Assembly: GCA_003154195.1 (NCBI GenBank)
Contig: PMCS01000029.1
Span: 208,703-272,702 of the forward strand
Source: Candidatus Omnitrophota bacterium
GTDB lineage: Bacteria; Omnitrophota; Gorgyraeia; Duberdicusellales; 4484-171
Direction: 5' to 3'
Length of the DNA: 64,000 bases
Part shown: piece by piece, positions 31,883 to 53,904 of the stretch
How the letters are laid out: each line of letters opens with the position of its first letter
Position numbering within the stretch: the stretch's first letter is position 1
Translations under genes and position numbers: made by a program
Notes under the pieces: generated by a model
Databases searched by the model: none
What the model was told of the DNA's origin: nothing
The model's input: only the letters and a program-made list of their open reading frames with translations

Positions 31883-32000
31883 AAATACTATGCGAATCAA
31901 ATCACAAATTACAAATACCAAATCCCAAATTTCCACCTTTTGCGGGATTGCGCTGAACCAGCATAATAAAGAGCGGGAAAATCCCAGTATCAAAATACAA

Positions 32001-34944: not shown

Positions 34945-35483
34945 TTTAAAAACCCATATTGTACTGATTATAACATGTGCCGTCGGCGCTTTGCTGCGTT
35001 TCTATAAGATCGACGAACGTTGTTATTCCGGCGACGCTATCGCCTGGATACCGGTCGGCGTGCATTTTCTTAGGGATTTCGGCACGCTGTTGGCCGGCGA
35101 GGGTTTTAGCCGCGTACCGTTAAAAATCGGCCCCCTGGGAAATATTCTGTTTATACAATCAACGGGAATGTCAAAGGAAAGAATTTGTCGATAGCTGTGA
35201 CGATATTGCTTCTATCATATGTTTATGAGAAAAAAGCAAATTAAAAATAGTTGGGCTAGTTAGGTCGGTTGAGCCAGTTGTAGTGTTGGAATCTTTCAAC
35301 AGCCTCGACAGTCCCAACGGTTGAACGGGCTAAACAGGTCCAACAGGCTAAACAATCAAATGCTTCATAACCGTATCTACATTTTTTTCAGGCTTTTAAT
35401 ATCCGGAAAAATAAAATATATTTACGCGAGTTTCCGCCGCCGATTTATTTTTTATTTCCGTAAAAATTACTTCAAAAAACAAA

Positions 35484-35677
35484 TGATGGAACGAAAGGGG
35501 CATTGTCCGGGTTCAGGTCATTGCTGTGCGAAAACAATGCCCCGGTGTAAATATTTTTCCGGCGGTAAGTGCCTTGCTTATAATGAACAACCATTTTTTT
35601 GTAAAATTTTTCCCATCGACAAAAAAGATGTTATACTTAGCGATGTAAAAGGGATATGCGGGTATTGTTGGAAATAA
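35484..35677 (+). CDS. Small Cys-rich protein, YkgJ/UPF0153-like (putative Zn/Fe-binding CxxCxxCC-type)
   Basis: 64 aa from the ATG at 35484. MMERKGHCPGSGHCCAKTMPRCKYFSGGKCLAYNEQPFFCKIF...CGYCW, 8 Cys. The ORF-track 118-aa version extends upstream into a repeat region. Confidence 0.4.
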
Positions 35678-39274: not shown

Positions 39275-40954
39275 ATGTCTAAAGTTATTCTTTGTATCCC
39301 CCCTGATTACGATTATAATTTTCCCCCCTTAGGCACGCCGGTCTTACTGGGATTTCTTAAAAGCAAAGGAATTAAAGCCGGGCAGGTCGATTTAAATCTG
39401 GCTTACCGCGATTTTCTTTTATCGAAAATTAAAGGCAAGGGATTGACCGCCGGCGACAAGAAATTACTTTTGCGGCGGTTGGTAAATGATTTTTTTACCC
39501 AGCGGCTTAAAGGGCATTATTATTCCCAATTGTTACCGCGTAGGCGCGGTAAGGCCTTGGCAGATCTTCCTTACGGTAATAGCTCCAACAGCTCATTTTA
39601 TTTCACCGAGCGCCTTTTATCTTCGAAGTATCTTTTTCGTTATCTGGCGGATAAGGAGAACAATACTTTTTATCAATTCTATCTCGCCGAAAGAATTATC
39701 ACTCGTCTTAAAAAAGATAAGATTGATTTGATCGGTATTTCGGTGATCTCGCCTTCGCAGGCTATTCCGGCGCTTACTTTAGGATTATTGATAAAACAAC
39801 TTCTCCCGGATGTACATGTTAACCTCGGCGGGCAATGGGTGACATTATTCCGGGATGAACTTAAAAAACGTGATGATTTTTTTGCCTGCTTCGACAGTCT
39901 GATCGTTTTTGAGGGTGAAACGCCGCTCTATGCGTTGGTCGATGCTTGGCGTGGGAGTAAAAAGGCTTTGCCGCCCTTGGCTAACGTAATTACCCAAAAA
40001 AATAAAAAACCGTTGCTTAACCCGCGAGGCGAAGATATAAACGCTTTGGCTACGCCGGATTTTTCCGGGTTACCTTTAAACCGTTATGATTCGAGTAAGG
40101 TCACGCCGCACCTTACCTATGAGACTTCACGCGGTTGTTATTGGTCTAAGTGCGCTTATTGTGTCGATTTGCCTTTACCGAAACCGTCTTATCGGGCTAA
40201 AAGCGCCGATCGTGTTGCCGCCGAAGTCAAAGAGTTGATCAAGCGATTCGGCGTAACTGATTTGATGATGGGTGATCCCGGCATGGCGCCGCGCCAGATG
40301 CTCGAAATATCGCGCGCCTTAATCAAAAATAGCATAAAAATCAAATGGTGGACCATGGCTCGCCTTGACTCCGGGTTTAACCAGAAAATTTTTGCAACAG
40401 CTAAACAAGCCGGCCTTTTCCAGGTTAATTTCGGTTTCGAATCGGCGTGTGACCGGGTGTGCGATTTTCTCCATAAAGGCAACCGGCAGGCTATTTCTGC
40501 CCGAGTGATCCAGGATTGCGCGCAATCGGGTGTTCGGGTAGATTTGCAGACCATGATCGGTATGCCGGGGGAAACGCATGGTGACGCGATGGAAACCGTC
40601 GGTTTTTTGATCGAAAATAAAAAAGATATCGCCGCCGTGACTTTTAACATTTTTTATCTCACCCCGGGTAATTATGTCTATCACAGTCCTAGGAATTACG
40701 GGGTAAGTTTTAATAAAAATAAAGTTTTACCGTTTCAATTTTTTATTCCGTTTAAAAATAAGCATGGTATGACCGCAGACCAGGCCGGGTTCATTATGAA
40801 TGTGTATCATCAGCTTTTAGCCGGGGCTAACGCCGGAACTTCAGTCTCCAAAGACCGGCGCAAACGATTCGGAAAGGTAAGTTTTTCGCTATGCGGCGAA
40901 TCCATCGGGATCAAATGGGAAAAATACGCGTCAGGAAATATTGTGATTAAATGA
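39275..40954 (+). CDS. B12-binding domain radical SAM protein (second paralog)
   Basis: 559 aa. N-terminal B12-binding-like region and radical SAM motif CYWSKCAYC. Confidence 0.85.
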   Translation: MSKVILCIPPDYDYNFPPLGTPVLLGFLKSKGIKAGQVDLNLAYRDFLLSKIKGKGLTAGDKKLLLRRLVNDFFTQRLKGHYYSQLLPRRRGKALADLPYGNSSNSSFYFTERLLSSKYLFRYLADKENNTFYQFYLAERIITRLKKDKIDLIGISVISPSQAIPALTLGLLIKQLLPDVHVNLGGQWVTLFRDELKKRDDFFACFDSLIVFEGETPLYALVDAWRGSKKALPPLANVITQKNKKPLLNPRGEDINALATPDFSGLPLNRYDSSKVTPHLTYETSRGCYWSKCAYCVDLPLPKPSYRAKSADRVAAEVKELIKRFGVTDLMMGDPGMAPRQMLEISRALIKNSIKIKWWTMARLDSGFNQKIFATAKQAGLFQVNFGFESACDRVCDFLHKGNRQAISARVIQDCAQSGVRVDLQTMIGMPGETHGDAMETVGFLIENKKDIAAVTFNIFYLTPGNYVYHSPRNYGVSFNKNKVLPFQFFIPFKNKHGMTADQAGFIMNVYHQLLAGANAGTSVSKDRRKRFGKVSFSLCGESIGIKWEKYASGNIVIK

Positions 40955-43011
40955 GCGGACAAAATATTACGTTTTTTGAGGTAAAGGGTTTTTGCATGTG
41001 GCCATTTTTACGCGCCGGCCAAAAAATATTAATTAAAAAAATAGCCGGTTCGGAATTTAATCCCGGGGATTTGATGCTTTACCATGCCGACGGCCAGTTA
41101 CTTTGCCATCGTCTGCTGCGTAAAGAGAAAAAAAACGGTAGTTGGGTATTTTATTGCCGTCCGGATACCTCCGGCCCCGGCGGGGAACCGGTTAGTGAAA
41201 ATATGGTGGAAGGCAAAGTCGCAGCGGTGGTCAGCGCGAACAAAATAGTCGGCTTGGAAACGCCTTGGGCACGCTTCCGGGCGGTTATGATTCTATTTTT
41301 TTTGTCGCCGATTTTGGCTCATTTTAACCGACTATATAAAAAAATAAAAATTCTAAAAATATTAAAAAATAACTATTTGCTTATATTTATCCTATTGTGC
41401 GCGGCAATGGTAAGAATTTGGGGGATAGGCTTCGGATTGCCGAATACAAATTGCCGGCCGGATGAGGAACAAATCGTGGATATCGTAAAATCTCCATTGC
41501 ATAATTTTAATCCCGAAGCGTTTAATTACCCGTCCCTGTACAAATATATTAATTTTTGTTTTTATGGATTATATTTTATTTTTGGTTTATTTACCGGCAA
41601 ATATAGATTGCTGTCGGATTTTGTTAGAGAGGTTGTCGTTACAAATTATAAAGACCTTTATTTAATCAATAGGTTTCTCTCCGCGTCTTTTGGCGTGGCG
41701 ACGGTATTTATGTGCTATAAGGCAGCCGAAAGATTTTTTGATAGAAAAACTGCAATAATTTCCGCATTTTTTTTGAGTTTCGCATATCTTCACGTCAGAG
41801 ACTCTCACTTTGGAACTGTTGATGTCCCGGCAGTTTTTTTTGTTATGTGCTCCATGCTTTTTATCATAAAATCTCACCAGGATAACTTAATAAAAAACTA
41901 TATTTTATCCGGGGTATTTGCCGGGCTAGCCGCTTCTACTAAATATATCGGCATCTTATTAATTGCGCCGATGTTAATTGTTAATAGTTTAAGCCTATCT
42001 CTGACTAAAGGCGAAGATAAGGCGTTGGCGCATCCGCTTTCTCCTGCTAAAAAAATGTTGTTTTTTATAATCTTTTTTATCGCGGCCTTTTTGTTAGGGA
42101 CTCCATATGCGGTATTAGATTTTAATCATTTTATAAGCGATTACTTGGGGACAATAAAACGTTTCATCCATGGGGAAGACATCATTCTTGGTAAAGGATG
42201 GTGGTATCATTTAAGGTTTTCTTTACTGTTTGGTATGGGCTTTAGTTTATTTTTCGCATCATTAGCGGGAATCTTAGTACTTATAAAAATTAATTTTAAA
42301 AAAGCGTTTATACTATGTTCCTTTCCATTGGTATATTATGCCATAATCGGCCGGGGATATGGAGTGTTCTTGAGATATGCTATTCCGCTTGTTCCCTATC
42401 TTTGCATTACTGCCGCCGTATCCACTGTATATCTTATTAATGGTCTTGGAAAATATTTAAACCCAATCTTAAATAAAGCGGTAATGCTGATATTTCCATT
42501 TTTAATTATCTTGCCTTCGGTTTATAATATTTTACGTTTTGATATTTTGCTGTCAAAAAAGGATAATCGCTTAATCGCGGCAGAATGGATCAACAAGAAT
42601 CTTCCCGAAAGAAGTTCTATCGCAATTTTTGACTCCGGCTACGGGATCCAGCTTGCCCCGGCATCCCTGGGGTTATCGGATAAAGATATGAGCCGGTCGG
42701 ATAAAATAATAATGGATTACTTAAGAAACAATAAGATCAAAGGTTTCAACCTAGACGGTTGGAATGGCCAATCAAATATGTCAAAATATATCGTTTTAGA
42801 AGAATCGCCCCTGAAGAGATTTTGTTTAATTGATCCGGAACAGAAAGAAATTATACTAAAATCTTATTATCTTTTGGCAGAATTCAAGTCGATTAACATT
42901 GACAATAAATCTAACTGGTTTGATCAGGATGACTGTTTCTATATGCCGTTCGTGGGCTTTAAAGAAATCCAAAGACCGGGTCCAAATATCTATATCTATA
43001 AAAAGAAATGA
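40951..43011 (+). CDS. Fusion protein: N-terminal S24/S26 (LexA/signal-peptidase-like) domain with Cys in the nucleophile position, followed by a GT-C (ArnT/PMT-like) membrane glycosyltransferase
   Basis: 686 aa. N-terminus VKGFCMWPFLRAGQKILIKK ... GDLMLYHADGQLLCHRLLRK follows the G-[SC]-M-x-P ... GD ... K/R layout of S24/S26 peptidases. Then more than 10 TMs. Start overlaps the stop of the B12-rSAM gene. Confidence 0.55.
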   Translation: MSGQNITFFEVKGFCMWPFLRAGQKILIKKIAGSEFNPGDLMLYHADGQLLCHRLLRKEKKNGSWVFYCRPDTSGPGGEPVSENMVEGKVAAVVSANKIVGLETPWARFRAVMILFFLSPILAHFNRLYKKIKILKILKNNYLLIFILLCAAMVRIWGIGFGLPNTNCRPDEEQIVDIVKSPLHNFNPEAFNYPSLYKYINFCFYGLYFIFGLFTGKYRLLSDFVREVVVTNYKDLYLINRFLSASFGVATVFMCYKAAERFFDRKTAIISAFFLSFAYLHVRDSHFGTVDVPAVFFVMCSMLFIIKSHQDNLIKNYILSGVFAGLAASTKYIGILLIAPMLIVNSLSLSLTKGEDKALAHPLSPAKKMLFFIIFFIAAFLLGTPYAVLDFNHFISDYLGTIKRFIHGEDIILGKGWWYHLRFSLLFGMGFSLFFASLAGILVLIKINFKKAFILCSFPLVYYAIIGRGYGVFLRYAIPLVPYLCITAAVSTVYLINGLGKYLNPILNKAVMLIFPFLIILPSVYNILRFDILLSKKDNRLIAAEWINKNLPERSSIAIFDSGYGIQLAPASLGLSDKDMSRSDKIIMDYLRNNKIKGFNLDGWNGQSNMSKYIVLEESPLKRFCLIDPEQKEIILKSYYLLAEFKSINIDNKSNWFDQDDCFYMPFVGFKEIQRPGPNIYIYKKK

Positions 43012-44447
43012 TGGAAGTTTTTTTAAAAGAAGATCACGACGAAGCGCTGAAGATTTGGCGTAAACTAAGCGTTAAAAACCTGGATTTGGTTCATGTAGAC
43101 GCACATATTGATTTCGTAATGCATTACGCGCGCGATCCCCAGGAAATACTCGCCCAGGCGGTCAATTTAAAACAACTGAAACAAAATCTCGAGTACACAT
43201 TATCTTTCTTAGAGTATGAAAAAGATTTGGATAAACAAACCGATATCGGTAATTATATTTACCCGGCGATGCGCGAAGGCCTGGTTAAAAATTTCTGGTG
43301 GGTTATTCCCGGCGATGCCGGCTCTTTTGAGAAAAATTTTAAATTGATAAAAAGGATATTTACCCGGTCGTTTACCGGACAAAAAGTAAAATTAATACAC
43401 AAAGCAAAAGGGTTAGCTTTTATTAAGGCGTGGGGTAGGGAATTTTGGGCCTGCACTTTGGAGACCTTGCCGGTTTTTTCTCAACCTGTGCTTTTGGATA
43501 TTGATACGGATTTTTTAGTGGTCGGTGATTTATCGCGCGCCGATAATACTTGTGATATCGGCAAGCGCAGGCCCTGGATAATACCGGAGGTGTTAAGAGA
43601 AAAGTTAGCCGCAAAAATAAAAAGCCCCGTGATAACTACGATTGTTTACTCGACCAACGGCGGGTTTACGCCCATGGTTTATCGCTGTCTGGGCGATGAA
43701 TTAGCCTATAGTTTTAATCAGCAAAAATTTGCCAAAAGTTTTTGCCGTCGTCGGCAAGCCGCACAAAACTTTAAAAAATTTTTAGCTTCCGGTAAAAAAA
43801 GCGATTATTGGCGGGCGGTTGGCTTTGATCCGGCCTATCGCGACGATGACAATAATTACGGGCCGTTGTATTTGGCCAAAAACCGCTTTAACCCGGCGCA
43901 AAAAGAAGTCAAAAAAATATTTTGTGTTGATCCCAAAAATCCGGCGGCTTTAAAGAATATGGGTGTAATCTTTTTGCGAAAGAAAAAATACTTGAAAGCA
44001 TTAAACTGTTTTCATTCGCCGTTAAAACAAAAATCAATTAAAAAAGGGTTACGCGCGCAAATTATTTTCGGGTTAGCTCAGGCAAATTTTGGATTAAAAC
44101 GGTTGGATGAGGCGCAAAAATTGTTTGCTTTACATCGACGCCTTATGCCGTTGGCGGGCGCAAGCTATTATTGGGCGGCAGATATTTACCGGGTAAAAAA
44201 AGAGTATGCTTTTGCCGCCGCAAGCTACCGCCACGCTTTGCGTCTAGGCGTCGGCGGGTTGGATGTTTTAGCCAAGCTTTTAAGGGTTTCTTTTAAGCTT
44301 GGCAAGACACAAAGGGATGATATAATTGCTTATGTAAAAATGCGAACCGGTAGTTTTAAGATACCGGCTAAAGGCAGCAAGCGGGTTAAGCGGAAAATAA
44401 CGATTCTTAAGCGGTTAATGAGGGAGGCAGGGGTTTATGCAAGATAA
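43008..44447 (+). CDS. Hypothetical protein: N-terminal arginase/deacetylase-fold-like (UPF0489-like) domain with C-terminal TPR repeats
   Basis: 479 aa. LVHVDAHIDF and LLDIDTDFLVVGD resemble the DAHxD / SFDxDxxDP metal-binding motifs of ureohydrolases. C-terminal TPR-like helices. Overlaps both neighbours by 4 and 11 nt. Confidence 0.4.
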   Translation: MMEVFLKEDHDEALKIWRKLSVKNLDLVHVDAHIDFVMHYARDPQEILAQAVNLKQLKQNLEYTLSFLEYEKDLDKQTDIGNYIYPAMREGLVKNFWWVIPGDAGSFEKNFKLIKRIFTRSFTGQKVKLIHKAKGLAFIKAWGREFWACTLETLPVFSQPVLLDIDTDFLVVGDLSRADNTCDIGKRRPWIIPEVLREKLAAKIKSPVITTIVYSTNGGFTPMVYRCLGDELAYSFNQQKFAKSFCRRRQAAQNFKKFLASGKKSDYWRAVGFDPAYRDDDNNYGPLYLAKNRFNPAQKEVKKIFCVDPKNPAALKNMGVIFLRKKKYLKALNCFHSPLKQKSIKKGLRAQIIFGLAQANFGLKRLDEAQKLFALHRRLMPLAGASYYWAADIYRVKKEYAFAAASYRHALRLGVGGLDVLAKLLRVSFKLGKTQRDDIIAYVKMRTGSFKIPAKGSKRVKRKITILKRLMREAGVYAR

Positions 44448-44718
44448 AGAAATTCTGAAAAAGAATAAAAATATCGTCAGCCGCGCCATCGGCGCGGAAA
44501 CCGTGCTCTTACCGATCTGCAAAGATACTAAAGAGATGAATTGTATTTATACGCTGAATAAACCGGCGGCGCGTGTTTGGGAGCTGATTGACGGTAAACG
44601 CGGTTTAAGCCGGATTAAAAAAGATATTCTCAACGAGTTTGACGTAAACGCCGGCGAACTTGATAAGCTGATGGCGGCATTGCTGAAAGACTTAAAAGAT
44701 ATAAAAGCGGTTAATTAA
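44437..44718 (+). CDS. PqqD-family protein (stand-alone RiPP recognition element, RRE)
   Basis: 93 aa. IVSRAIGAETVLLPI ... IYTLNKPAARVWELIDGKRGLSRIKKDILNEFDV matches the PqqD-like wHTH pattern. Confidence 0.7.
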   Translation: MQDKEILKKNKNIVSRAIGAETVLLPICKDTKEMNCIYTLNKPAARVWELIDGKRGLSRIKKDILNEFDVNAGELDKLMAALLKDLKDIKAVN

Positions 44719-44734
44719 GCCGTGGGAGGAGACT

Positions 44735-44944
44735 ATGAACAAACCCAAATTTAACCCGATCGTTACCCGTGTCAAGCTTAACCCCGAACAGGCAGTTTTG
44801 GCGTGCAGTTGTTATACAACAAACAGGAAATGCCCTGCCAACGGCACCGGCGGCCGAGTTGCCAACCGGAGCATTTGCCAGACCAATGTCTGTATTAATA
44901 ACTACTGCCTAAATGGAAACTCTGCAAACAGGTCATCAACTTAG
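44735..44944 (+). CDS. Candidate RiPP precursor peptide: 23-aa leader-like N-terminus plus 46-aa Cys/Asn/Ser/Thr-rich core with six Cys
   Basis: MNKPKFNPIVTRVKLNPEQAVLA | CSCYTTNRKCPANGTGGRVANRSICQTNVCINNYCLNGNSANRSST. RBS gggagg 6 nt upstream. Located between the RRE gene and the three SPASM radical SAM genes. Confidence 0.55.
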   Translation: MNKPKFNPIVTRVKLNPEQAVLACSCYTTNRKCPANGTGGRVANRSICQTNVCINNYCLNGNSANRSST

Positions 44945-44949
44945 GGGAG

Positions 44950-46029
44950 ATGCTTGCTCACGGATTAGCCTATCTTGAAGAGAAATTTTCCGATCAGCGG
45001 CATAAGCCTATAAATGGCCAGATCGATTTGACCTATCGCTGTGACTATAACTGTCGGCATTGCTATTGTAAAGGCAGTGAAAATATCGGCCGGGAATTGA
45101 CCACGGCCCAGGTCAAAAAAGTTTTAGATGAAATATATGCCGCCGGTTGTTTCTGGCTTACCTTAACCGGCGGCGACCCCTTGATCCGGCCGGATTTTAA
45201 AGAAATTTATGCTTATGCAAAACAAAAGGGGTTTGTCGTTACGATTTTAACCAATGGTTATCGCCTTAATCGCAAGTTGGTTGATTATTTCACCAAATAC
45301 CCGCCGCTTTCAATCGATATAACCCTAAACAGTCTGGATAAACTTATCTATGAAAAAATAATTGGATTTCCCGGTAAAGCCTTATCTCGTGTGTTGGATA
45401 ATATTCAATATGCATCGCGTAAGGGTATAGCTTTAATTATTAAAGCCAATGCCCTCAAAGAGAATAAAAACCAGATCGGCAGGATTAAGCGCTGGGCGCA
45501 TAATTTGCCGGGCAAATCTAAAGAAAACCTGTTTAATTTTCGTTACGACAATGTTATCTATCCGCGCTTAGATGGCGATCTTGAGCCTTGCCGCCACAGG
45601 CTTGATCAAAAAGAGCTGGGTGTTGTTTACGGGCTTGATTCGGATATTAAAAAAGACCGGCGAAATTATTTAAAAAGGGGATTTCCTTCCGGTAAAATAC
45701 CGCATCGTCCTTTGTATTTTTGTAATACTTTCCAAACGCAATTTTTTATTGATCCGTTTGGACGGTTAAAATTTTGCCCGCATACCGACAAATTCAGTGT
45801 GGATTTACGCAAGGTTTCTTTTGTCCGGGGTTTTTATGAGGAGTTCCCTAAGCTTACAACGGTGAGATTTAAAACTAATTCGCCTTGCCGCACTTGCCGT
45901 ATTCGTAAAATGTGCCGTTCTTGCCCGGCCGCTGCCCTTGCGGAGACCGGTGATGAAGAAAAGCCGGTTGAATATTTTTGCCATATGGCGCATCAATCGG
46001 CAAAAGATACTTTGCGCCTAAAAAAATAA
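44950..46029 (+). CDS. Radical SAM / SPASM-domain peptide-modifying enzyme (maturase 1)
   Basis: 359 aa. N-terminal CDYNCRHCYC. C-terminal SPASM auxiliary-cluster motif CRTCRIRKMCRSCPAAA plus the upstream Cys pair FCNTF ... KFCP. Confidence 0.85.
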   Translation: MLAHGLAYLEEKFSDQRHKPINGQIDLTYRCDYNCRHCYCKGSENIGRELTTAQVKKVLDEIYAAGCFWLTLTGGDPLIRPDFKEIYAYAKQKGFVVTILTNGYRLNRKLVDYFTKYPPLSIDITLNSLDKLIYEKIIGFPGKALSRVLDNIQYASRKGIALIIKANALKENKNQIGRIKRWAHNLPGKSKENLFNFRYDNVIYPRLDGDLEPCRHRLDQKELGVVYGLDSDIKKDRRNYLKRGFPSGKIPHRPLYFCNTFQTQFFIDPFGRLKFCPHTDKFSVDLRKVSFVRGFYEEFPKLTTVRFKTNSPCRTCRIRKMCRSCPAAALAETGDEEKPVEYFCHMAHQSAKDTLRLKK

Positions 46030-46031
46030 AG

Positions 46032-46895
46032 ATGAAAACCGGTGCTTTTAATGATTTTTGGCAGGGTATTCACGCCGACGCGGATACCAGGCATTTACCG
46101 TTGCGGGTAATGTTTGAGTTGACTTATAAATGCAACTTTCATTGCCGGCACTGCTATGTGCCGAAAAGCTGGCGCCGCAGAAAAGAATTAAACACCAAGG
46201 AAATATTAGGTATTATTAAACAACTTAAAACGGCCGGATGTTTTTATCTGGGATTTACCGGCGGCGAAATATTTATGCGTCCGGATATCTGGAAGATTTT
46301 AGAATTTTCGCGTAAGCAGGGGATGCAGATAATTTTGTATACCAACGGTTTTCTTGTTGATAAAAAAAATGCCCGGCTTATTGCCGGTATAGGGGTAAAT
46401 AAAGTAGATATTACATTGCCGGGAATAAGTGAAAAAGTTTTTGACGGTGTCACGGGAGTTAATGGCTCGCATAAGCGGGTATTTTCAGCAATTGATTTTT
46501 TACGTCGGAATAAAATAGACCTTGGCTTTAAAACCTGTTTGCTTAAGGCTAACCATGGTGAAATCAAGGCGATCGAAGCTTTTTGTGCCGGAATTAAAGC
46601 GCCGCATCGGCTTGATGATGCGCCTGTGCCGCCGATTGACCGATTGATGGCCGATCAGGCTAAACCAACCAAGTTATTTAAGTGCGGAAGCGGAATCGCA
46701 CAGTGCGCCATAACGCCGCAGGGCCAGGTAAAATTATGTCCGTTGGTTGATTGGCCGAAGATTAAGATATCCCAGAACCAAAAATTTTATCAGATTTGGG
46801 AAAAATTGCCGGAAATGATTAAAGCCGGTAAGTGCCGCCGGCCTTGTCCGTGCACCTTAGGCCGGTTAACGGAGGAGCTATGCGCTATTCAATAA
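46032..46895 (+). CDS. Radical SAM / SPASM(twitch)-domain enzyme (maturase 2)
   Basis: ATG at 46032 lies directly after the stop of maturase 1; the ORF-track start at 45978 would overlap by 50 nt. CNFHCRHCYV; C-terminal Cys cluster CGSGIAQCAITPQGQVKLCP ... CRRPCPC. Confidence 0.8.
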   Translation: MKTGAFNDFWQGIHADADTRHLPLRVMFELTYKCNFHCRHCYVPKSWRRRKELNTKEILGIIKQLKTAGCFYLGFTGGEIFMRPDIWKILEFSRKQGMQIILYTNGFLVDKKNARLIAGIGVNKVDITLPGISEKVFDGVTGVNGSHKRVFSAIDFLRRNKIDLGFKTCLLKANHGEIKAIEAFCAGIKAPHRLDDAPVPPIDRLMADQAKPTKLFKCGSGIAQCAITPQGQVKLCPLVDWPKIKISQNQKFYQIWEKLPEMIKAGKCRRPCPCTLGRLTEELCAIQ

Positions 46896-47890
46896 ACCTC
46901 GTTAGAAAGGAGAAAATTAGCGTGGATGTGCCTGCGCATAATAAGTTATCCCCCAGGAGAGGGCGTCTTTCTAACGGGGTAAAGTTTAAGATCGCCGATA
47001 TTGTTTTTAAGCTTACCAGCCGTTATCCGGTGATTTTCAAGGATAACCGGGAGCTTTATTTGCGTAAATACGGTAATTTTATTTATCGCGGTAAACAAAA
47101 CTCTGCGATAAACATATCGGTAGATGTGGTGGAAAAATTTCCCTTTTTTCCAGGCAAAAAAGTTTTTGCGGTGTATGAAGACGGCGGTGACGAGGAGCGA
47201 TGGCGGCTTTGGGAAAACAAGAACGAATATGTTTACCATTGTCCGATCCCCGAACGAGAATCTATGGCTTTCGTTGCTAAAGATTTTTCTTCTGCCCGGG
47301 CCTATGTCCCGCCGTTTGAGGGTAGATTTGCCTGGGATATCAAGGATATTCTTTATGACCTGATGCAAGTCATGCTGATTAACTATTTTGCTTATAACAA
47401 AAACGGATTGATCTTGCATGCGGCGGCGGTCAAAGATGGGCGGCAGGCCATAGTTTTTGCCGGTAAATCCGGTAACGGCAAAAGCACTACAGCGCGGTTA
47501 TGGCATCGGTATAGTAAAGCGGTGGTTTTGAACGATGACCGGGTGATTGTGCGTAAAACTGCCAAAGATTTTTTTGCTTATAGCGGGCCATGGCATGGAG
47601 AGTTTGGCAACTCGGTAGAGGCGTTTCCTAACCAGGCCCGTTTGTGCGGTTTATTCGTTTTAGAACACGCTAAAAAAAATTTTTGTTGTACTCTTCCCAG
47701 AGAAGAAGCATTTCGAACTTTATACCCTACGCTTTTTTCGGTATTTTGGAATCGCCTGTTAATGGATAATACATTGAGTTTGTGCGAAGAGCTGATAGAT
47801 ACGGCAGCCGTTTCGCGCTTGGGATTTGTTAAGGATAAAAATATAATATCTTTTGTGAGGCAAGAATTGGATGAAAGAGATTCAGTATAA
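46880..47890 (+). CDS. HPr kinase/phosphorylase C-terminal-domain-like protein (HprK-related kinase, RiPP-associated type)
   Basis: LILHAAAVKDGRQAIVFAGKSGNGKSTTA matches the HprK P-loop region. Probable ATG at 46880 after the RBS ggagg; the ORF track opens at 46832. Confidence 0.65.
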   Translation: MRYSINLVRKEKISVDVPAHNKLSPRRGRLSNGVKFKIADIVFKLTSRYPVIFKDNRELYLRKYGNFIYRGKQNSAINISVDVVEKFPFFPGKKVFAVYEDGGDEERWRLWENKNEYVYHCPIPERESMAFVAKDFSSARAYVPPFEGRFAWDIKDILYDLMQVMLINYFAYNKNGLILHAAAVKDGRQAIVFAGKSGNGKSTTARLWHRYSKAVVLNDDRVIVRKTAKDFFAYSGPWHGEFGNSVEAFPNQARLCGLFVLEHAKKNFCCTLPREEAFRTLYPTLFSVFWNRLLMDNTLSLCEELIDTAAVSRLGFVKDKNIISFVRQELDERDSV

Positions 47891-48908
47891 GAAATTCAGT
47901 TTGGCGGCGCATTCAAACAATTTAGAGCGGGGGCGGCCCAGCTATTGTCAAATGGAGCTTACTTATGCCTGTGGTTTGCGTTGTCCGTATTGTTATGCCG
48001 GAGGATATAATTGTTCCGCGCGTATTGCCCAAGAGATGAATACGGTTGAATTAAAGAAGATCATCGATGAGTTAAAGAGCCTCGGGGTCTTGTGGGTCTG
48101 CTTTACCGGCGGCGATCCTTTAATGCGCAAGGATTTCTATGAGCTTTATACTTACGCGCGAAGACAAGGTTTCTTGATCATTGTTTTTACCAGCGGATAT
48201 TCATTGACGAAAAAACACTTGGATCTATTCAGGCGCCAGCCGCCATTTAATATTGAGATAACGCTTAATGCGGTAGAAGAAAAGCTTTATGAAAAAATAT
48301 CCGGTGTTCGCGGTTCATTCGGGAGAGTTATGGCTGCGATTGAAGCTTTGCGCCGGAATAAATTACCGCTTAAAATAAAAACGATGGTAACTACGCTAAA
48401 CTTGCATCATCTTGCCGAAATAAAAAAATATTTGCGGGGAATCGGTTTGAAATTCTATCCGGATTATTTTTTAAACTCCGGTTTTGATAACGATAGGCGC
48501 CCACTGGCATTTCAGATACCGCGGGAAGCGGTCCCCGGCCGGATAAACCCTAAAGAAAATATTTGCGCTCGAGTATCGCCAAAGGGTAAAACCAGGCCAA
48601 GCCCTTTTTTTACCTGCATTGTGGCTGCCGGAGATGGATTTCAGCTCGACCCTTACGGCAATATCTCATTGTGTTTTTCTATACGTAATCCTAAAATAAA
48701 TATTCTCGAGACAGGCATTAATTTGAGGCTAAAAAATCTAGTTAAATATTTTGCCGGATTGGATTTCAAGACCGATTCAAAATGTAAAAGTTGCGCTAAG
48801 CGGGATAAGTGCGGGTGGTGCCCGGGCAAGGCATTTGTAGAGACAGGTAGCTTGGAGAAACCAGTTGATTATTGTTGTAAATTAGTCGGGGTTTATGGGA
48901 ATCAATAA
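47871..48908 (+). CDS. Radical SAM / SPASM-domain enzyme (maturase 3)
   Basis: 345 aa. CGLRCPYCYA. C-terminal SPASM motif CKSCAKRDKCGWCPGKA. Start overlaps the stop of the kinase gene. Confidence 0.85.
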   Translation: MKEIQYKKFSLAAHSNNLERGRPSYCQMELTYACGLRCPYCYAGGYNCSARIAQEMNTVELKKIIDELKSLGVLWVCFTGGDPLMRKDFYELYTYARRQGFLIIVFTSGYSLTKKHLDLFRRQPPFNIEITLNAVEEKLYEKISGVRGSFGRVMAAIEALRRNKLPLKIKTMVTTLNLHHLAEIKKYLRGIGLKFYPDYFLNSGFDNDRRPLAFQIPREAVPGRINPKENICARVSPKGKTRPSPFFTCIVAAGDGFQLDPYGNISLCFSIRNPKINILETGINLRLKNLVKYFAGLDFKTDSKCKSCAKRDKCGWCPGKAFVETGSLEKPVDYCCKLVGVYGNQ

Positions 48909-50547
48909 AAAAGATTTACTGCTTCCGTTTAAAATAGTAGTTCGGCGGCGTTACTTAAAAAGTTGGGTTATTACAACGTTTTTGGCGCTGGTTGCCGCGG
49001 GCGCCGGGTTGGCGGTTCCTTACCTGGTCAAGTTGACGGTGGACGAGGGAATCACCAAAAAAAATCTTACATTTTTTTTACTTTTGTGTCTGGCGGCAGG
49101 GATTGTGGTTTTATCGAAATATATTTTCGATGCGATTGTATCTTTGCGCCGAACGGCCTTGATGGCAAAAATACGCTTTGACTTCAACCGCCGAGTCTTC
49201 GAAAATATGTATGCGATGCCTCAATCATGGTTTGCCAAAAAAGGCGCGGGAGAAGCGATTTACGCGATTGATAACGACAGCGCTGCGCTTATCAATATTG
49301 TCGGCGCGACCGCAAACGGGGTTTTTATTGAAGCGGTCAGTGTTATCGCCACATTGGCGATAATATTATCGCTTAATACGAAGATCGGCTTAACTGTAAT
49401 CTCGTTCCTGCCGGTGATCTACTTTTTAAGCCGTCGCCGGTTCAAAAGATTGGGCGAAATCTACAAAGATGTGGCCGGAAATGCCGAGGGGATTCTTAAT
49501 TTCTTAGAAGAAAGTTTTTGGCGTTCTTACTTGATTAAAATTTTTAATGCGGCGTCGGCTGCGGTACGCCGTTATTCGCGTTTGTTGATCAAGGATACGC
49601 GGTTAACAATAAAACGTGAACGCCAGGAAGCATGGTCGTCATTGGCCCCTGCGATCTTGCCGCTGGTTGTGACGGGTGTGATCTATATTGTGTCGGGCTA
49701 TCAGGCAATTACCGGCCATCTAAGCTTAGGCACAATTGCCGCAATCGGAGGTTATATTTATCAATTCATTTCATCTTCCAGCCAATTGCTATTTAATTGG
49801 CAAGATCTGCAACCAGGATTGATTTCTGCCCAGCGCCTTGCGCCGTTGTTAACGCCGGGCAAAGCGCATTGTACAGCCGACGAGACGCCCGCGGTGGTTT
49901 TAAGCGGTGCCATAGAAATAAGCAGATTAAATTTTTCTTATGCCGGCGGACGAGATATTTTCGACGGTTTAAATCTTGATATCCCTGCCGGTGAATATAC
50001 AGTGGTTACCGGCCCTTCGGGCTGCGGCAAGACTACTCTGTTGAATTTGATCATGCGTCTCTATCCGACGGAGAAAGGCGAGATCTTAATCGACGGCAAG
50101 AATGTAAATTCACTACCGCGATCGTTGCTGGGCACGCAGATTATTCTTTGCCCCCAGGAGCCGATGCTTTGGAATGCGACAGTTTCCGAAAATATCGCCT
50201 ATCCGGCTTTAGCTTTTAGTGAAGACGATCTAAAAAATGCTGCGGCGCTAAGCGGTGCCGATCAATTTATTTCTAATTTAGAAAAAGGCTATGAAACGAC
50301 GATCGGTGAAAACGCAACGCGCCTTTCGCAGGGTCAGAAGCAGCGTATTTCTTTATCGCGCGCTTTAATAAAGCAGCCGAAAATATTATTACTGGATGAG
50401 GCTTTTAGCGGTTTACCGGAAGAAGAGGAAACATCGATTATCGCACGGTTGCGTACGCAATTTCCCAAAATGACGATTATTGCCGCAACGCACCGGTTGG
50501 CGGGCTTAAAGAATTGTGAGCGCATTATAAAATTAGGAGCAGAGTAA
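48895..50547 (+). CDS. ABC transporter, fused permease-ATPase exporter (no N-terminal C39 peptidase domain)
   Basis: 550 aa. 6-TM region, then Walker A GPSGCGKTTLLN, signature LSQGQKQRISLSRAL, Walker B ILLLDEAFSG. Confidence 0.85.
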   Translation: MGINKKDLLLPFKIVVRRRYLKSWVITTFLALVAAGAGLAVPYLVKLTVDEGITKKNLTFFLLLCLAAGIVVLSKYIFDAIVSLRRTALMAKIRFDFNRRVFENMYAMPQSWFAKKGAGEAIYAIDNDSAALINIVGATANGVFIEAVSVIATLAIILSLNTKIGLTVISFLPVIYFLSRRRFKRLGEIYKDVAGNAEGILNFLEESFWRSYLIKIFNAASAAVRRYSRLLIKDTRLTIKRERQEAWSSLAPAILPLVVTGVIYIVSGYQAITGHLSLGTIAAIGGYIYQFISSSSQLLFNWQDLQPGLISAQRLAPLLTPGKAHCTADETPAVVLSGAIEISRLNFSYAGGRDIFDGLNLDIPAGEYTVVTGPSGCGKTTLLNLIMRLYPTEKGEILIDGKNVNSLPRSLLGTQIILCPQEPMLWNATVSENIAYPALAFSEDDLKNAAALSGADQFISNLEKGYETTIGENATRLSQGQKQRISLSRALIKQPKILLLDEAFSGLPEEEETSIIARLRTQFPKMTIIAATHRLAGLKNCERIIKLGAE

Positions 50548-52116
50548 ATGCAATTTGCGGCTTTTAAGGGTGATTTAAATATGAAACATTTTTCCCACGC
50601 TAAGGGTAAACGATTCGATTTAAATGCATCGACTTCGGTGGCCCAGCAAAAGATGCATCTTTTGGAGACGCTTAAAGGCCTGGGCACAATAGTTCCTATG
50701 GATGATGATATAAAATTAGATGATTATAAAACGCTTTGTGCGCGTCCGGATACTATCCTGGTTACTGTGCACCATGCTTTGCCTTGGGCGCAGGTTCCTC
50801 GGCGGCTCTTGCTTCATTCTTTGGGTGATTTTATGTTGACCAGTGTTTATTTTGATTACGAACACTTTGCCGGCAATACCATAAATTTAATGACCAGCCG
50901 TTTGCAGGCGCAGCGCCTTAAAGAGCATTTGAGGCAAGCTGCGCCTGGCCTTGGTGTTTTTACTCCACGCCTTAAAGTTGATAATTTTTATCCGCCAAGC
51001 CCTAAAGAAAAAATAGCGGCGCGGGAAAAAATGAAACTGGCTAAAGACACCAAGCATATTGTTTATGCCGGGCGTTGGCTTTCTAACAAAGGAATCTGCC
51101 AGGCGGTTAGGGCGCTTAATTTATGGCCGTTGTCTAATATTAAAATTTCTTTTGCCGGTAATTTTGAACCAGGATTTGTGATCAGCCAGACCGGGACGAA
51201 TCATCATACTTTTTCTTCTTATTTTGAACGCGAGGCTCTGCGGCGTAATTGCCATACGCGGTTAGATTTACTTAAAGCTCATGGCCCGCAGGCTTTGCGC
51301 GAACTATTGTGGTCGGCGGATTTATTTGTTTATCCGTCGATCCATGAAGATGAAAATTTCGGCATGGTACCGCGCGAGGCAGTATTGTGCGGCGTGCCGG
51401 TTGTGGTAACGGATTTTTGCGGTCTTGGCCAGTTAGGCCGTGGTGTCGGCGGATTACTACCCACTTACCCCACATTAGCCGGGCCGCGGTATAGCCTTAA
51501 AACTTTACGTGATTTAATGACAGAAGGATTAAAGACCACCAAAGACAAATTAAAGAAAAATATTCGTTTTGTCTTTCAAGAGTGTGACCGAATTCAAGCG
51601 CGCGCAGATTTAAAACGCGCGGCTGAAACTTTATTGCACCAACGATTAGTAAAAGATCTGCCTAAGCCTAAAGAGGCCAGGAGTGAATTGCTTGCGCGAT
51701 TATTGCGTTACGCTGACCCCGGATTTTTAGAGGCAGTGTTAGAAAAAAACAAACCCTTGCCTGAGGGGTTGCTGGTGGATGGTACAGGTTGTTATAATAA
51801 AGAATTTGCTTACCATAAATTTTTAAGTGCCATCCAGGGTTTTTATACCACAGCCGCCCAGCCGCCGCAAATTGAAGCAGGGTTGGTTTTGCGGGGATTT
51901 TTCCGCTTAGCCTTATGGCAGGAAGAAAAAGCTTTGGTCGAGAATGGTTTCCCCGGGCCGCGCGTTAAGCGTTATAGCGATAAGGATTGGCATGATTTGC
52001 TTGCCTGTGTAGAAATACAGCTTGATCAGGAGATAGTTATTTATCCGCGTACGCCCGATCAGCTGCGCCTGGCGCAGGAGTTAGTGGGGTTGGGCTATCT
52101 GGCGCCGGATAGTTGA
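50548..52116 (+). CDS. Glycosyltransferase family 1/4-like protein
   Basis: 522 aa. GT4 C-terminal motif EDENFGMVPREAVLCGVPVVVTDFCGLGQL. The start may be the ATG at 50581. Confidence 0.5.
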   Translation: MQFAAFKGDLNMKHFSHAKGKRFDLNASTSVAQQKMHLLETLKGLGTIVPMDDDIKLDDYKTLCARPDTILVTVHHALPWAQVPRRLLLHSLGDFMLTSVYFDYEHFAGNTINLMTSRLQAQRLKEHLRQAAPGLGVFTPRLKVDNFYPPSPKEKIAAREKMKLAKDTKHIVYAGRWLSNKGICQAVRALNLWPLSNIKISFAGNFEPGFVISQTGTNHHTFSSYFEREALRRNCHTRLDLLKAHGPQALRELLWSADLFVYPSIHEDENFGMVPREAVLCGVPVVVTDFCGLGQLGRGVGGLLPTYPTLAGPRYSLKTLRDLMTEGLKTTKDKLKKNIRFVFQECDRIQARADLKRAAETLLHQRLVKDLPKPKEARSELLARLLRYADPGFLEAVLEKNKPLPEGLLVDGTGCYNKEFAYHKFLSAIQGFYTTAAQPPQIEAGLVLRGFFRLALWQEEKALVENGFPGPRVKRYSDKDWHDLLACVEIQLDQEIVIYPRTPDQLRLAQELVGLGYLAPDS

Positions 52117-52988
52117 GGTTTTAAATACCCATTTTTTTGTAAAACCAGTTTTAGTCCGAATTCTTTAGCGATTTTGTGGAAATAATTTAGATCACTGCGA
52201 AAACTATTTACACTGCTTTGCTGGGTGTCGAAGATTCTGCCGCAAAATTTCTGGTATAAACCAGCTTTAACCTTTGGGCTTTTGCGTTTAAGTTTATTGA
52301 TCCACCATAAATCAAGATCATCGATTTTTTCGCTATCCTTGCGTGGAGTTGGGTTAAGGCATACTCCGCATTTAGAGCACAAGGCTTTTACTTGTTTTAG
52401 ATAGGCAGAGGGTTTTTTGCGCCACCACGGGGTGTGTATATCAAATGCAGTTTTAGTTTTTAAGATTATATCGATCGCCGCGGCAACTTCGCAGAAATAA
52501 GCGCCTTGGGGGTTGATTGAAGCACTCCAGCTATTTTGTATCCAGCAACTTTCAACGGCGTTAATATAACGGTTGCCCAGAGCTTCTTTTGAGCGCAGCA
52601 TAATTGGGGCATGAAAGATTTGCCCGTGGGTGTGATTATTGGGTAGGATAGCGCCGAAAGTATCAGCAATAATGGGCGCATATTTTTTAAAGCGTTTGTC
52701 CAGAGTGCTCCATAGGCCCAGTTTTTCTGGAGGAAACTTTTTTTGCAAGTATCGGCATATCTCTTTGAATTTTGGATGTAATAATGGTTCGCCGCCCATG
52801 ACCCCGATCATGGTCGGAGTTTTAGCGATACCCTCGACTGCCGCCTTAAAATAATCCAAATCCATCATGTACGGTTTTTTATGATGTCCGACTAAACGGG
52901 TGCAATTGGCGCAGCGATAGATGCAGGCGTTGGTGACTTCGATTTGGATTGCTTCTTTTAAGATGATCGGCTTAAGCATATCAACCAT
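52095..52988 (-). CDS. Radical SAM domain protein (fourth rSAM of the locus, minus strand)
   Basis: 297 aa. VTNACIYRCANC and GGEPLLHP. C-terminal CSKCGVC. Its 3' end overlaps the 3' end of the GT gene by 22 nt. Confidence 0.75.
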   Translation of the reverse strand: MVDMLKPIILKEAIQIEVTNACIYRCANCTRLVGHHKKPYMMDLDYFKAAVEGIAKTPTMIGVMGGEPLLHPKFKEICRYLQKKFPPEKLGLWSTLDKRFKKYAPIIADTFGAILPNNHTHGQIFHAPIMLRSKEALGNRYINAVESCWIQNSWSASINPQGAYFCEVAAAIDIILKTKTAFDIHTPWWRKKPSAYLKQVKALCSKCGVCLNPTPRKDSEKIDDLDLWWINKLKRKSPKVKAGLYQKFCGRIFDTQQSSVNSFRSDLNYFHKIAKEFGLKLVLQKNGYLKPQLSGAR

Positions 52989-53046: not shown

Positions 53047-53904
53047 ATGATAGAGAAAGAAGACGACAAAAATTACGCTTATCTGGCGGCCCATTTGAAG
53101 ACACTTGAGTCCGCTAAAGAAATTCTTCACGCCTTAGAGAAGCAGGGGATCGAAGCAATAATATTAAAAGGGCTCCACCTGGCCGTTAAGATTTACGACG
53201 AGCTAAACCGTCAACCGGGATCGGATATTGATCTTTTGCTAAAGCGCGCTGACATTTTCCGCGCCGAGCCGATTTTAAACGAATTGGGCTGGCGTCCTCG
53301 CGCGCCGGTCTTGCGGGATTTGGCCGATGGTAATAAACCGTGCGCGCTTAACAGCCTGATGTTTTTTCGCCCCGATAGTCTGGTCGTGCTGCATCTACAC
53401 TGGCATATCATTAACTCGACCTGGCCGCTGAACAATTATGCCAAATCCATCAATATGGAAGAAATCTGGCAAGCGGCAACCGCCGGAACGCTTGACGGCG
53501 CGCCCATCAGAGAGTTAAAACCCGAACACCTTATCATTTATTTATGCTGCCACGGATTGATTCACTATTTTGCCAAGCCGGTTTATGTTGACGACATTAA
53601 AACCGCTCTGGTACGTTTTAAAGATAAGATCAATTGGGATTTTTTGTATGGGCAAGCCCAAGAGTGGGGCGTGCGCTGGATAGTTGACTATTGTATCAAA
53701 TATATTGAAAAACCCAGGATTGGCCGATACACTAAGACTTATTGGCGGTATTTTTTCCATGAAAAAGGGATAACCGGGAAAATGTTATTTTTGTATCGGA
53801 CGTTTTTTCCCAAAAAAATTGTTATGGCTGCCGCGCACAACTTGCCGCTTGCCCAGATTGGCTTTAAACTTTACATGGATCGTCTTGAAAACATTAGTAG
53901 ATAA
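53047..53904 (+). CDS. Nucleotidyltransferase-family protein (PF14907-like, the type recurrent in lasso/RiPP clusters)
   Basis: 285 aa. Pol-beta-like NTase motif GSDIDLLLKRAD preceded by the GL..A region. Confidence 0.5.
   Translation: MIEKEDDKNYAYLAAHLKTLESAKEILHALEKQGIEAIILKGLHLAVKIYDELNRQPGSDIDLLLKRADIFRAEPILNELGWRPRAPVLRDLADGNKPCALNSLMFFRPDSLVVLHLHWHIINSTWPLNNYAKSINMEEIWQAATAGTLDGAPIRELKPEHLIIYLCCHGLIHYFAKPVYVDDIKTALVRFKDKINWDFLYGQAQEWGVRWIVDYCIKYIEKPRIGRYTKTYWRYFFHEKGITGKMLFLYRTFFPKKIVMAAAHNLPLAQIGFKLYMDRLENISR

Follow-up and report, generated by a model that had tools for sequence, protein, structure and literature searches.

What does a 69-codon open reading frame (ORF), set between a PqqD-family gene and a row of radical S-adenosylmethionine (rSAM) genes, encode, and what do the neighbouring enzymes do to its product? 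The ORF lies at positions 44735-44944 of a stretch of 64,000 nucleotides from a Candidatus Omnitrophota bacterium (assembly GCA_003154195.1, contig PMCS01000029.1), and this whole stretch is referred to as the window. The first-pass annotation of this DNA had taken it for a precursor-type peptide, and this holds: the peptide has a conserved leader and a variable core and is encoded beside a PqqD-family gene and genes for SPASM-type rSAM enzymes. Homologous small ORFs beside SPASM rSAM genes in other genomes, which that annotation had suggested looking for, were found at dozens of loci. Our analysis indicates that 44735-44944 probably encodes the precursor for a hitherto undescribed family of peptides that are made on ribosomes and modified after translation (RiPPs), matured by the surrounding cassette, which is related to the Scm (SynChlorMet) system.

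The translation of the precursor ORF reads MNKPKFNPIVTRVKLNPEQAVLA up to the AVLA junction and CSCYTTNRKCPANGTGGRVANRSICQTNVCINNYCLNGNSANRSST behind it, which gives MNKPKFNPIVTRVKLNPEQAVLACSCYTTNRKCPANGTGGRVANRSICQTNVCINNYCLNGNSANRSST for the full 69 residues. The gene begins 16 nt 3' of the gene for the 93-residue PqqD-family protein and stops 5 nt before an rSAM gene. The minus-strand ORFs that overlap it are just 24 and 27 residues long, and those in the other plus-strand frames, of 21-47 residues, lack support of their own. No terminator or attenuator was found on the plus strand 3' of the gene, where the next gene is 5 nt away, and no second precursor copy is present within the 64-kb window. 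Codon usage is informative here. When 93 different DNA versions of the nine codons for the motif K-L-N-P-E-Q-A-V-L are compared, the entropies at codon positions 1, 2 and 3 are 0.17, 0.04 and 1.34 bits, with the amino acids fixed by ascertainment, the loci having been found with a back-translated pattern. The free synonymous variation in the motif indicates that conservation acts at the level of the protein and not on an RNA or DNA element. Judged by sequence, 44735-44944 is thus a genuine gene, translated and subject to selection on its protein. On the plus strand at 44299-44326 a match to a sigma-70-like promoter (TTGGCA-16-TATAAT with TG upstream; 11 of 12 positions agree) lies within the 3'-terminal part of the arginase-like gene, about 110 nt before the PqqD start; it could provide a separate transcript for the PqqD, precursor and rSAM genes.

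The peptide belongs to a large family. A first search of 5.8 billion proteins recovered 40 homologues of 64-93 residues. Aligned with each other, these homologues differ little over residues 1-27 (F6, P8, T11, K14-L22, C24 and C26 are identical in all), and everything beyond residue 27 is hypervariable except C48 and a Ser at the last or penultimate position. When 1.84 billion cluster representatives (clusters at 50% identity) were searched with a profile, 842 proteins came up at E≤1e-3, of which 607 reached E≤1e-10; the best 150 of the 842 matches are 38-93 residues long. The signature K-L-N-P-E-Q-A-V-L-x-C-x-C-[Y/W/F] is almost invariant at the N-terminus of the family. We presume that residues 1-27 comprise the leader and the region recognised by the RiPP recognition element (RRE), together with the invariant C24-x-C26-aromatic motif. 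The most conserved feature outside the leader is a terminal Ser or Thr, which is the last residue in 138/140 and 165/166 members of two sets (about 99%); the exceptions look truncated. When 267 distinct cores were pooled, 225 were of a main type, C-x-C-[Y/W/F]-x(~18)-C-x(~11)-C-x(~13)-[S/T]-end, in which the aromatic residue directly follows C-x-C in 204 cases. A second, shorter type (38 cores) opens with ...KLNPEQAVLSCC. This 'CC' subfamily (...KLNPEQAVLSCC...) forms tandem arrays of up to five genes (loci L058, L062, L063, L064, L067-L072, L075 and L078, in the Omnitrophota metagenome-assembled genomes (MAGs) STF1_137 and STB_176).

Scanning one genome per species revealed 70 precursor loci, the majority of them in Candidatus Omnitrophota MAGs and the remainder labelled Elusimicrobia, Planctomycetales, WOR-3, Caldisericota, Chloroflexota and others. 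Contigs that carry the exact window peptide derive from fen, peat and similar metagenomes, and the nearest named genome is an Elusimicrobia MAG. In several genomes, tandem arrays contain many orphan precursor copies; about 22 copies are spread over ten contigs of one Omnitrophota MAG, mostly distant from any maturase gene. Hypervariable cores together with such copy numbers suggest a diversified product that is secreted or displayed on the surface, and not a cofactor. The source databases annotate the homologues as 'hypothetical protein'. Pfam and NCBIfam scans of the 69-residue peptide matched no family (NCBIfam at E≤0.01), and the literature searched holds no description of the cassette, of the LNPEQAV motif or of such a peptide family. 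The precursor is also none of the types listed in PMC12703449 (NHLP, Nif11, SCIFF, 'SCCRRSCN', 'DD(I/V)LF' and 'MGXRRSSE'); a link of the 'KLNPEQAVLSCC' subfamily to 'SCCRRSCN' is conceivable, and SCCR is contained in no family member examined.

The precursor gene sits in a cassette whose order recurs. On the plus strand of the window the genes for the B12-binding rSAM enzyme, the S26-GT-C fusion (a peptidase-like domain joined to a glycosyltransferase), the arginase-like protein with its tetratricopeptide repeats (TPR), PqqD, the precursor, rSAM1, rSAM2, ScmC, rSAM3 and the ATP-binding cassette (ABC) exporter follow each other. After the exporter come a GT4 glycosyltransferase gene, a minus-strand rSAM-like gene, the PF14907 nucleotidyltransferase gene and one for a Wzz/GNVR tyrosine-kinase-type protein. 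The order S26-like, arginase-TPR, PqqD, precursor, rSAM1, rSAM2, ScmC, rSAM3, ABC, PF14907 is found across phyla, in Elusimicrobia, Omnitrophota and other MAGs. Neighbours within 10 kb were counted by BLASTP of the window proteins against the ORFs of 79 fetched loci, and since many contigs are truncated the counts are lower bounds. PqqD was found at 52/79 loci, rSAM enzymes at 55/79, ScmC at 45/79 and the ABC exporter at 36/79, followed by the arginase-like protein (31/79), the S26-like protein (28/79) and PF14907 (21/79, typically directly 3' of the ABC gene). The B12-binding rSAM enzyme (16/79) and a second GT-C paralogue (3/79) are accessory. The minus-strand gene at 52095-52988 encodes 297 residues with only the N-terminal part of an rSAM domain (PF04055, 28 bits, just under the gathering score); it stands in the same place in loci of the Elusimicrobia clade and is almost absent elsewhere (8/79 loci). 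A small Cys-rich ORF on the plus strand at 35321-35677 (...GHCPGSGHCCAKTMPRCKYFSGGKC...GICGYCWK), just 5' of a B12-binding rSAM gene, has no Pfam match at E≤0.01. Polysaccharide-export genes are further recurrent neighbours: Wza-type genes flank the cassette in 12/79 loci and Wzz-type genes in 9/79, in differently labelled phyla and often in the order ABC, PF14907, Wza, Wzz. Genes for Wza-like, Wzz/GNVR and HD_5 domain proteins recur at L004, L016, L019, L020, L028, L030, L040, L045, L053 and L057. The coordinates of all features are compiled in Table 1.

Table 1. Positions in the 64-kb window of the precursor gene, its parts and the genes of the surrounding cassette.
Feature	Position	Strand	Evidence and remarks
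Wza-like (outer-membrane polysaccharide export, OPX) and Wzz/GNVR (polysaccharide co-polymerase, PCP) polysaccharide-export genes	31890-33038 and 54542-56458		
B12-binding rSAM enzyme, accessory	39275-40954	+	PF04055 and PF02310; TIGR03975 105 bits, under cut-off
S24/S26-fold peptidase-like domain	40951-41355	+	Cys15 at nucleophile position; invariant H53-R54 and D72
GT-C glycosyltransferase part of fusion	41356-43011	+	Fused to S26-like domain in a 686-residue ORF, 40951-43011
Peptide-arginase-like domain fused to TPR repeats	43008-44447	+	PF12640, 33 bits against a gathering score of 27
Stand-alone PqqD-family protein	44437-44718	+	PF05402, E = 5e-9, above gathering score
Shine-Dalgarno sequence GGGAGGAG	44724-44731	+	Strong ribosome-binding site, 3 nt 5' of the precursor ATG; read from the sequence
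Precursor peptide gene	44735-44944	+	ATG at 44735, 69 codons, TAG at 44942-44944; ORF listing and homologues
Conserved N-terminal block, residues 1-27	44735-44815	+	M.KPKF.P.VTRVKLNPEQAVL-x-C-x-C-Y; invariant columns; block in 166/166 further members
Hypervariable region, residues 28-69	44816-44941	+	Scaffold C48 and C58; extra C33 and C53; four Arg; S67-S68-T69
rSAM1	44950-46029	+	PF04055, E = 1e-24; full seven-Cys SPASM tail (CX12GX4C ... CX2CX5CX2C ... C); no N-terminal RRE
rSAM2	46032-46895	+	PF04055, E = 8.5e-23; short, reduced twitch-like C-terminal Cys motif; start codon follows the call made for identical contigs
ScmC-family P-loop kinase, HprK/PEPCK fold	46922-47890	+	Invariant H166, G-x-S-G-x-G-K-S-T and D205-D206-R207
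rSAM3	47871-48908	+	PF04055, E = 1.8e-23; full SPASM tail
ABC exporter	48895-50547	+	PF00664, PF00005; fused transmembrane and nucleotide-binding domains, no C39 peptidase domain
'Uncharacterised nucleotidyltransferase'	53047-53904	+	PF14907, E = 5.6e-35

The PqqD-family protein is the presumed RRE of the system. All three rSAM enzymes begin directly at CX3CX2C and can be aligned to SkfB from about residue 100 onward only. Lacking a fused RRE, they presumably use the separate PqqD. In the translations of rSAM1 and rSAM3 the motif CX12-13GX4C ... CX2CX5CX2C ... C can be read, and the Pfam SPASM model gave no score at E≤0.01 on the rSAM enzymes. Comparison with the PDB returned SkfB as the best match of rSAM1 and as the second best of rSAM2 and rSAM3; the solved structures nearest to rSAM1 are SkfB and PqqE, over the core domain only. 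Models of characterised maturases (AlbA, SkfB, StsB, PapB and CcpM) reach at best 47-75 bits against cut-offs of 300-850. The best NCBIfam matches (among them NirJ, mycofactocin, PqqE, StsB, AlbA and PapB) are likewise far under their cut-offs, so that the reaction cannot be assigned from them. The B12-binding rSAM enzyme appears closest to RiPP C-methyltransferases. Finally, alignments of the ABC exporter to models of peptidase-containing exporters start at about model position 135-160, which confirms that it lacks the C39 protease, as had been noted at first reading.

Where the leader ends is less clear. A site of the A-x-A type at VLA|C had been proposed, and V21-L22-A23|C24 of the window peptide fits the -3/-1 rule. 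Across the family the -3 residue is a nearly invariant V or I and the -1 residue is A, S, T or G in 140/166 members (small in about 84-90%), so most members are compatible with the proposed site. Yet in 4 of 18 distinct precursors with an S26-like gene within 6 kb, the -1 residue is W, W, I or D. A hydrophobic h-region is absent from the leader, KPKFNPIVTRVKLNPEQ. Since C-x-C-[YWF] is nearly invariant as well, conservation marks no boundary between leader and core at A23, and the conserved C-x-C may be as much a recognition or modification site as part of the 'core'. Cleavage exactly at A23|C24 is therefore possible but less likely than not. The S24/S26-like domain pointed out in the first-pass annotation belongs to a protein that proved to be a recurrent component of the cassette. 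In relatives this is a separate gene of 135 residues with GFSMWP and a nucleophile Ser, where the window protein has GFCMWP (Cys15). The fusion to GT-C is limited to this lineage: it is identical in three independent assemblies (L001-L003), and its GT-C part was matched solely in close Elusimicrobia relatives.

At the other end of the peptide, the near-universal terminal Ser/Thr and the neighbouring ScmC, to which a fold search gives an HprK/PEPCK-type kinase fold, make the earlier idea of a C-terminal kinase target the best supported of those put forward. The precomputed Pfam family PF27840 (ScmC) matches the window protein and 55/56 homologues. There is a precedent: PsmK, which is HprK-like, adds a phosphate to its precursor's C-terminal Ser, a D158A/D159A mutant being inactive, and PsmN adds a hexose to the phosphate that PsmK makes (PMC6993621). 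C-terminal phosphorylation by ScmC has, in our estimate, about an even chance of being right. By analogy, the PF14907 protein is a candidate PsmN-like tailoring enzyme; a PDB search with it found nothing.

The arginase-like protein carries KEDHDEAL, VDAHID and LLDIDTDF. The metal-ligand motifs of peptide arginases are EEH(N/H)EAF, DXHXD and LDIDLDYF (PMC12703449), and all three have counterparts in the window protein. Cores encoded within 6 kb of an arginase-like gene contain a mean of 3.95 Arg, and 0/21 are devoid of it; those with no such gene nearby contain a mean of 1.59, and 10/46 have none. Together with the four Arg of the window core, this correlation makes ornithine residues a reasonable prediction, and we regard conversion of Arg to ornithine in the core as an evenly balanced call.

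From these families the following pathway can be proposed. PqqD would bind the KLNPEQAVL leader and present the peptide to the maturases. The three rSAM enzymes would act on C24, C26, C48 and C58, most likely forming thioethers from Cys to the backbone or to side chains. The arginase-like enzyme would turn some of the four core Arg into ornithine, with B12-dependent methylation as an option, and ScmC would phosphorylate the hydroxyl of the C-terminal Ser/Thr. The PF14907 enzyme, perhaps together with GT4, could then attach a sugar to this phosphate, in the way known from PsmK and PsmN acting on a lasso peptide. The ABC exporter would carry the product out, and at the outer face the membrane-anchored S26-fold peptidase would cut off the leader. 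The fused GT-C of this lineage may glycosylate the product further.

How the cysteines are used is where the alternatives diverge. Re-reading bore out the residues listed in the first-pass annotation: in the 46-residue core behind AVLA, Cys occupies core positions 1, 3, 10, 25, 30 and 35, Asn occurs nine times, NGT, NRS and NRS are the sequons, and SST forms the C-terminus; the core also contains four Arg. The same annotation had called the peptide 'SCIFF-like' for its six Cys, and this did not survive. SCIFF peptides have six Cys in 45 residues (PMC12703449), and on that reading the window peptide would be a SCIFF/ranthipeptide member in which a SCIFF-type maturase crosslinks each of six core Cys within about 45 residues. 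The six Cys in a 46-residue core, the adjacent SPASM rSAM enzymes and the weak matches obtained with CteB (structure 5wgg) and with the model of PapB speak for it. The 45 residues of SCIFF, however, are the whole peptide, leader included, and here the six Cys lie in the 46-residue core of a 69-residue peptide. Neither the SCIFF precursor model TIGR03973 nor any other NCBIfam or Pfam family matches, the rSAM enzymes lack an N-terminal RRE of the SkfB type, and the PapB model gives 54 bits where its cut-off is 340. Moreover, the family scaffold comprises only four of the six Cys (C24, C26, C48 and C58). Of these, only C24, C26 and C48 are invariant in the 40-sequence alignment; C58 is the usual fourth, and C33 and C53 are extras found only in the closest relatives of the window peptide. 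With three or four conserved Cys, a modal count of four, and six Cys in just 4/140 and 5/166 members, 'six Cys in 46 residues' is, by these counts, a numerical coincidence with SCIFF and not a family trait, and we consider membership in SCIFF highly improbable. A more serious alternative is that the Cys form disulfides or bind metal while the rSAM enzymes introduce C-C or C-O crosslinks, epimerise residues or oxidise Cys, which would yield a disulfide-stabilised or metal-binding peptide with a modified tail. Four scaffold Cys would permit two disulfides, the closest solved relatives include the C-C crosslinking PqqE besides SkfB, and the conserved aromatic residue after C-x-C could be a crosslink partner. 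However, the Cys are invariant where all other core positions vary, which favours them as the modified residues. The match between three rSAM paralogues and three invariant Cys (first alignment) is suggestive in the same direction, and cytoplasmic maturation in anaerobes would be expected to disfavour early disulfides. We give the disulfide or metal reading a minor but appreciable share of the probability, and thioether crosslinks on the scaffold Cys a larger one that still falls somewhat short of even.

A glycosylated peptide made by the adjacent glycosyl-transfer machinery had also been thought conceivable; in its strict form, the neighbouring GT-C would act like an oligosaccharyltransferase on the sequons of an N-glycosylation substrate. 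The GT-C gene is adjacent and shows a weak match to archaeal STT3 (18.9 bits), but its best match is to PMT/PMT_2, that is, O-mannosyl/ArnT-like families, and most loci lack GT-C, including the sequon-rich L004 and L006. The three sequons of the window core compare with 1.9 expected from composition (shuffle p = 0.28). An N-rich Elusimicrobia clade has 70 against 47 expected, uncorrected for relatedness, and the other 114 cores are depleted, with 29 against 45. N-x-S/T sequons were accordingly rejected as a family feature, and with sequons unenriched and GT-C optional we deem N-glycosylation improbable. Still less credit is due to the idea that a cofactor is made from the peptide, as happens with pyrroloquinoline quinone (PQQ) or mycofactocin, a few residues being used and the rest discarded. 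The architecture, a stand-alone PqqD with PqqE/MftC-like SPASM rSAM enzymes, is the same, and the top NCBIfam matches include mycofactocin and PqqE maturases, all under cut-off. But the cores are hypervariable with many paralogous copies per genome, the invariant residues (C-x-C, C, C, terminal S/T) span the whole peptide, the exporter is dedicated, and no downstream enzymes of cofactor type were found. The flanking polysaccharide-export genes raise one more possibility, namely that the peptide is the ribosomal anchor or primer of a glycoconjugate and not a free, antibiotic-like RiPP. ScmC would phosphorylate the terminal Ser/Thr, PF14907 and GT4 (with GT-C in this lineage) would build a phospho-linked glycan, and export would proceed through the ABC exporter together with the Wzz-like and Wza-like proteins. 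If true, ultra-small Omnitrophota and Elusimicrobia would carry a hypervariable crosslinked peptide-glycan on their surface, for example for attachment to host or prey. We consider this unlikely, and the Wza/Wzz linkage may reflect no more than co-location, or else a route of export across the outer membrane.

We thus retain the exported, modified RiPP as the preferred reading, against which several points weigh. Every modification in the pathway is inferred from enzyme families, all matches are far under equivalog cut-offs, and thioether formation is one among many reactions of SPASM rSAM enzymes. Comparison of the ScmC sequence with the PDB gives P-loop-level matches only (HprK at E = 0.01 in a profile search, nothing with phmmer), the analogy with PsmN assumes that PsmN belongs to PF14907, and the correlation of Arg with arginase, drawn over loci L001-L079, takes no account of phylogeny. 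A simple secreted RiPP leaves unexplained that the cassette lies within polysaccharide-export genes in the window and repeatedly beside them elsewhere. Finally, all family members come from uncultured organisms.

If the reading is true, the 842 clusters represent a large RiPP family without a Pfam or NCBIfam model, most of it in uncultured Omnitrophota and Elusimicrobia, two phyla in which secondary metabolism has hardly been explored. The family would supply a substrate for the long-orphaned ScmC/SynChlorMet-type cassettes and extend C-terminal phosphorylation and phospho-glycosylation from lasso peptides to radical-SAM peptides. One pathway would unite three SPASM enzymes, a peptide arginase and a candidate leader peptidase of the S26 fold, here with Cys in place of the nucleophile Ser. 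A conserved leader with hypervariable, multi-copy cores is moreover an architecture that could be used for peptide engineering.

How does the cassette compare with known systems? In outline it functions as a radical-SAM RiPP pathway, combined with the tailoring of a terminal Ser seen in paeninodin and pseudomycoidin and with a free-standing PqqD as in PQQ and mycofactocin. Sactipeptides and ranthipeptides (AlbA, SkfB, CteB/SCIFF, PapB) likewise combine Cys-containing cores with SPASM rSAM enzymes, and the donor Cys of sactipeptide hairpins are clustered at the start of the core, which resembles the window core. Here, however, the RRE is separate, there are three distinct rSAM paralogues and no precursor model matches; these classes do without kinase, arginase and S26-like modules. 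The peptide-arginase RiPPs (OspR in landornamide; FlmR/OhkR; PF12640) share Arg-rich cores and the motifs DXHXD, EEH..EA. and DIDxD, but the NCBIfam model for FlmR/OhkR gives the arginase-like protein 31 bits against a cut-off of 350, and the fusion to TPR repeats differs. PQQ and mycofactocin biosynthesis (PqqD/PqqE, MftB/MftC) also direct a stand-alone PqqD-family chaperone and SPASM rSAM enzymes to a small peptide; in those systems a cofactor arises from a single-copy precursor whose reactive residues are conserved, in contrast to hypervariable multi-copy precursors with an exporter. Paeninodin and pseudomycoidin (PadeK/PsmK, PsmN) resemble the window in an HprK-fold kinase beside a precursor with a terminal hydroxyl residue, a nucleotidyltransferase-like gene next to the ABC exporter and a PqqD-type RRE. 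The window peptide ends in Thr with Ser at -2 and -3, and we counted it with the lasso arrangement of an HprK-like kinase next to a Ser-ending precursor; the models HprK_rel_A and HprK_rel_B give 22-24 bits against a cut-off of 200. Neither a lasso cyclase (Asn-synthetase-like) nor a B2 protease was found among the scanned ORFs of at least 80 residues between 29.6 and 63.4 kb, so the product does not count as a lasso peptide. The precursor of pseudomycoidin receives a phosphate at its C-terminal Ser, and hexosylation follows (PMC6993621). Scm (SynChlorMet, Haft) shares with the window PqqD-like, PqqE-like SPASM rSAM and ScmC-family proteins in one operon. All four of its models (TIGR04248 ScmD, TIGR04249 ScmC, TIGR04250/04251 ScmE/ScmF) match weakly, at 26 bits against a cut-off of 125 for ScmC, 17 against 100 for ScmD, at most 72 against 400 for ScmE and at most 68 against 400 for ScmF. 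The present cassette differs in having three rSAM enzymes where Scm has two and in the added S26-like, arginase-like and PF14907 proteins. To our knowledge the Scm cassette has so far lacked an assigned precursor; the present cassette comes with an explicit precursor family. By these comparisons the cassette appears related to Scm, and its proteins would not be equivalogs of the curated models, though ScmC falls in the broader PF27840.

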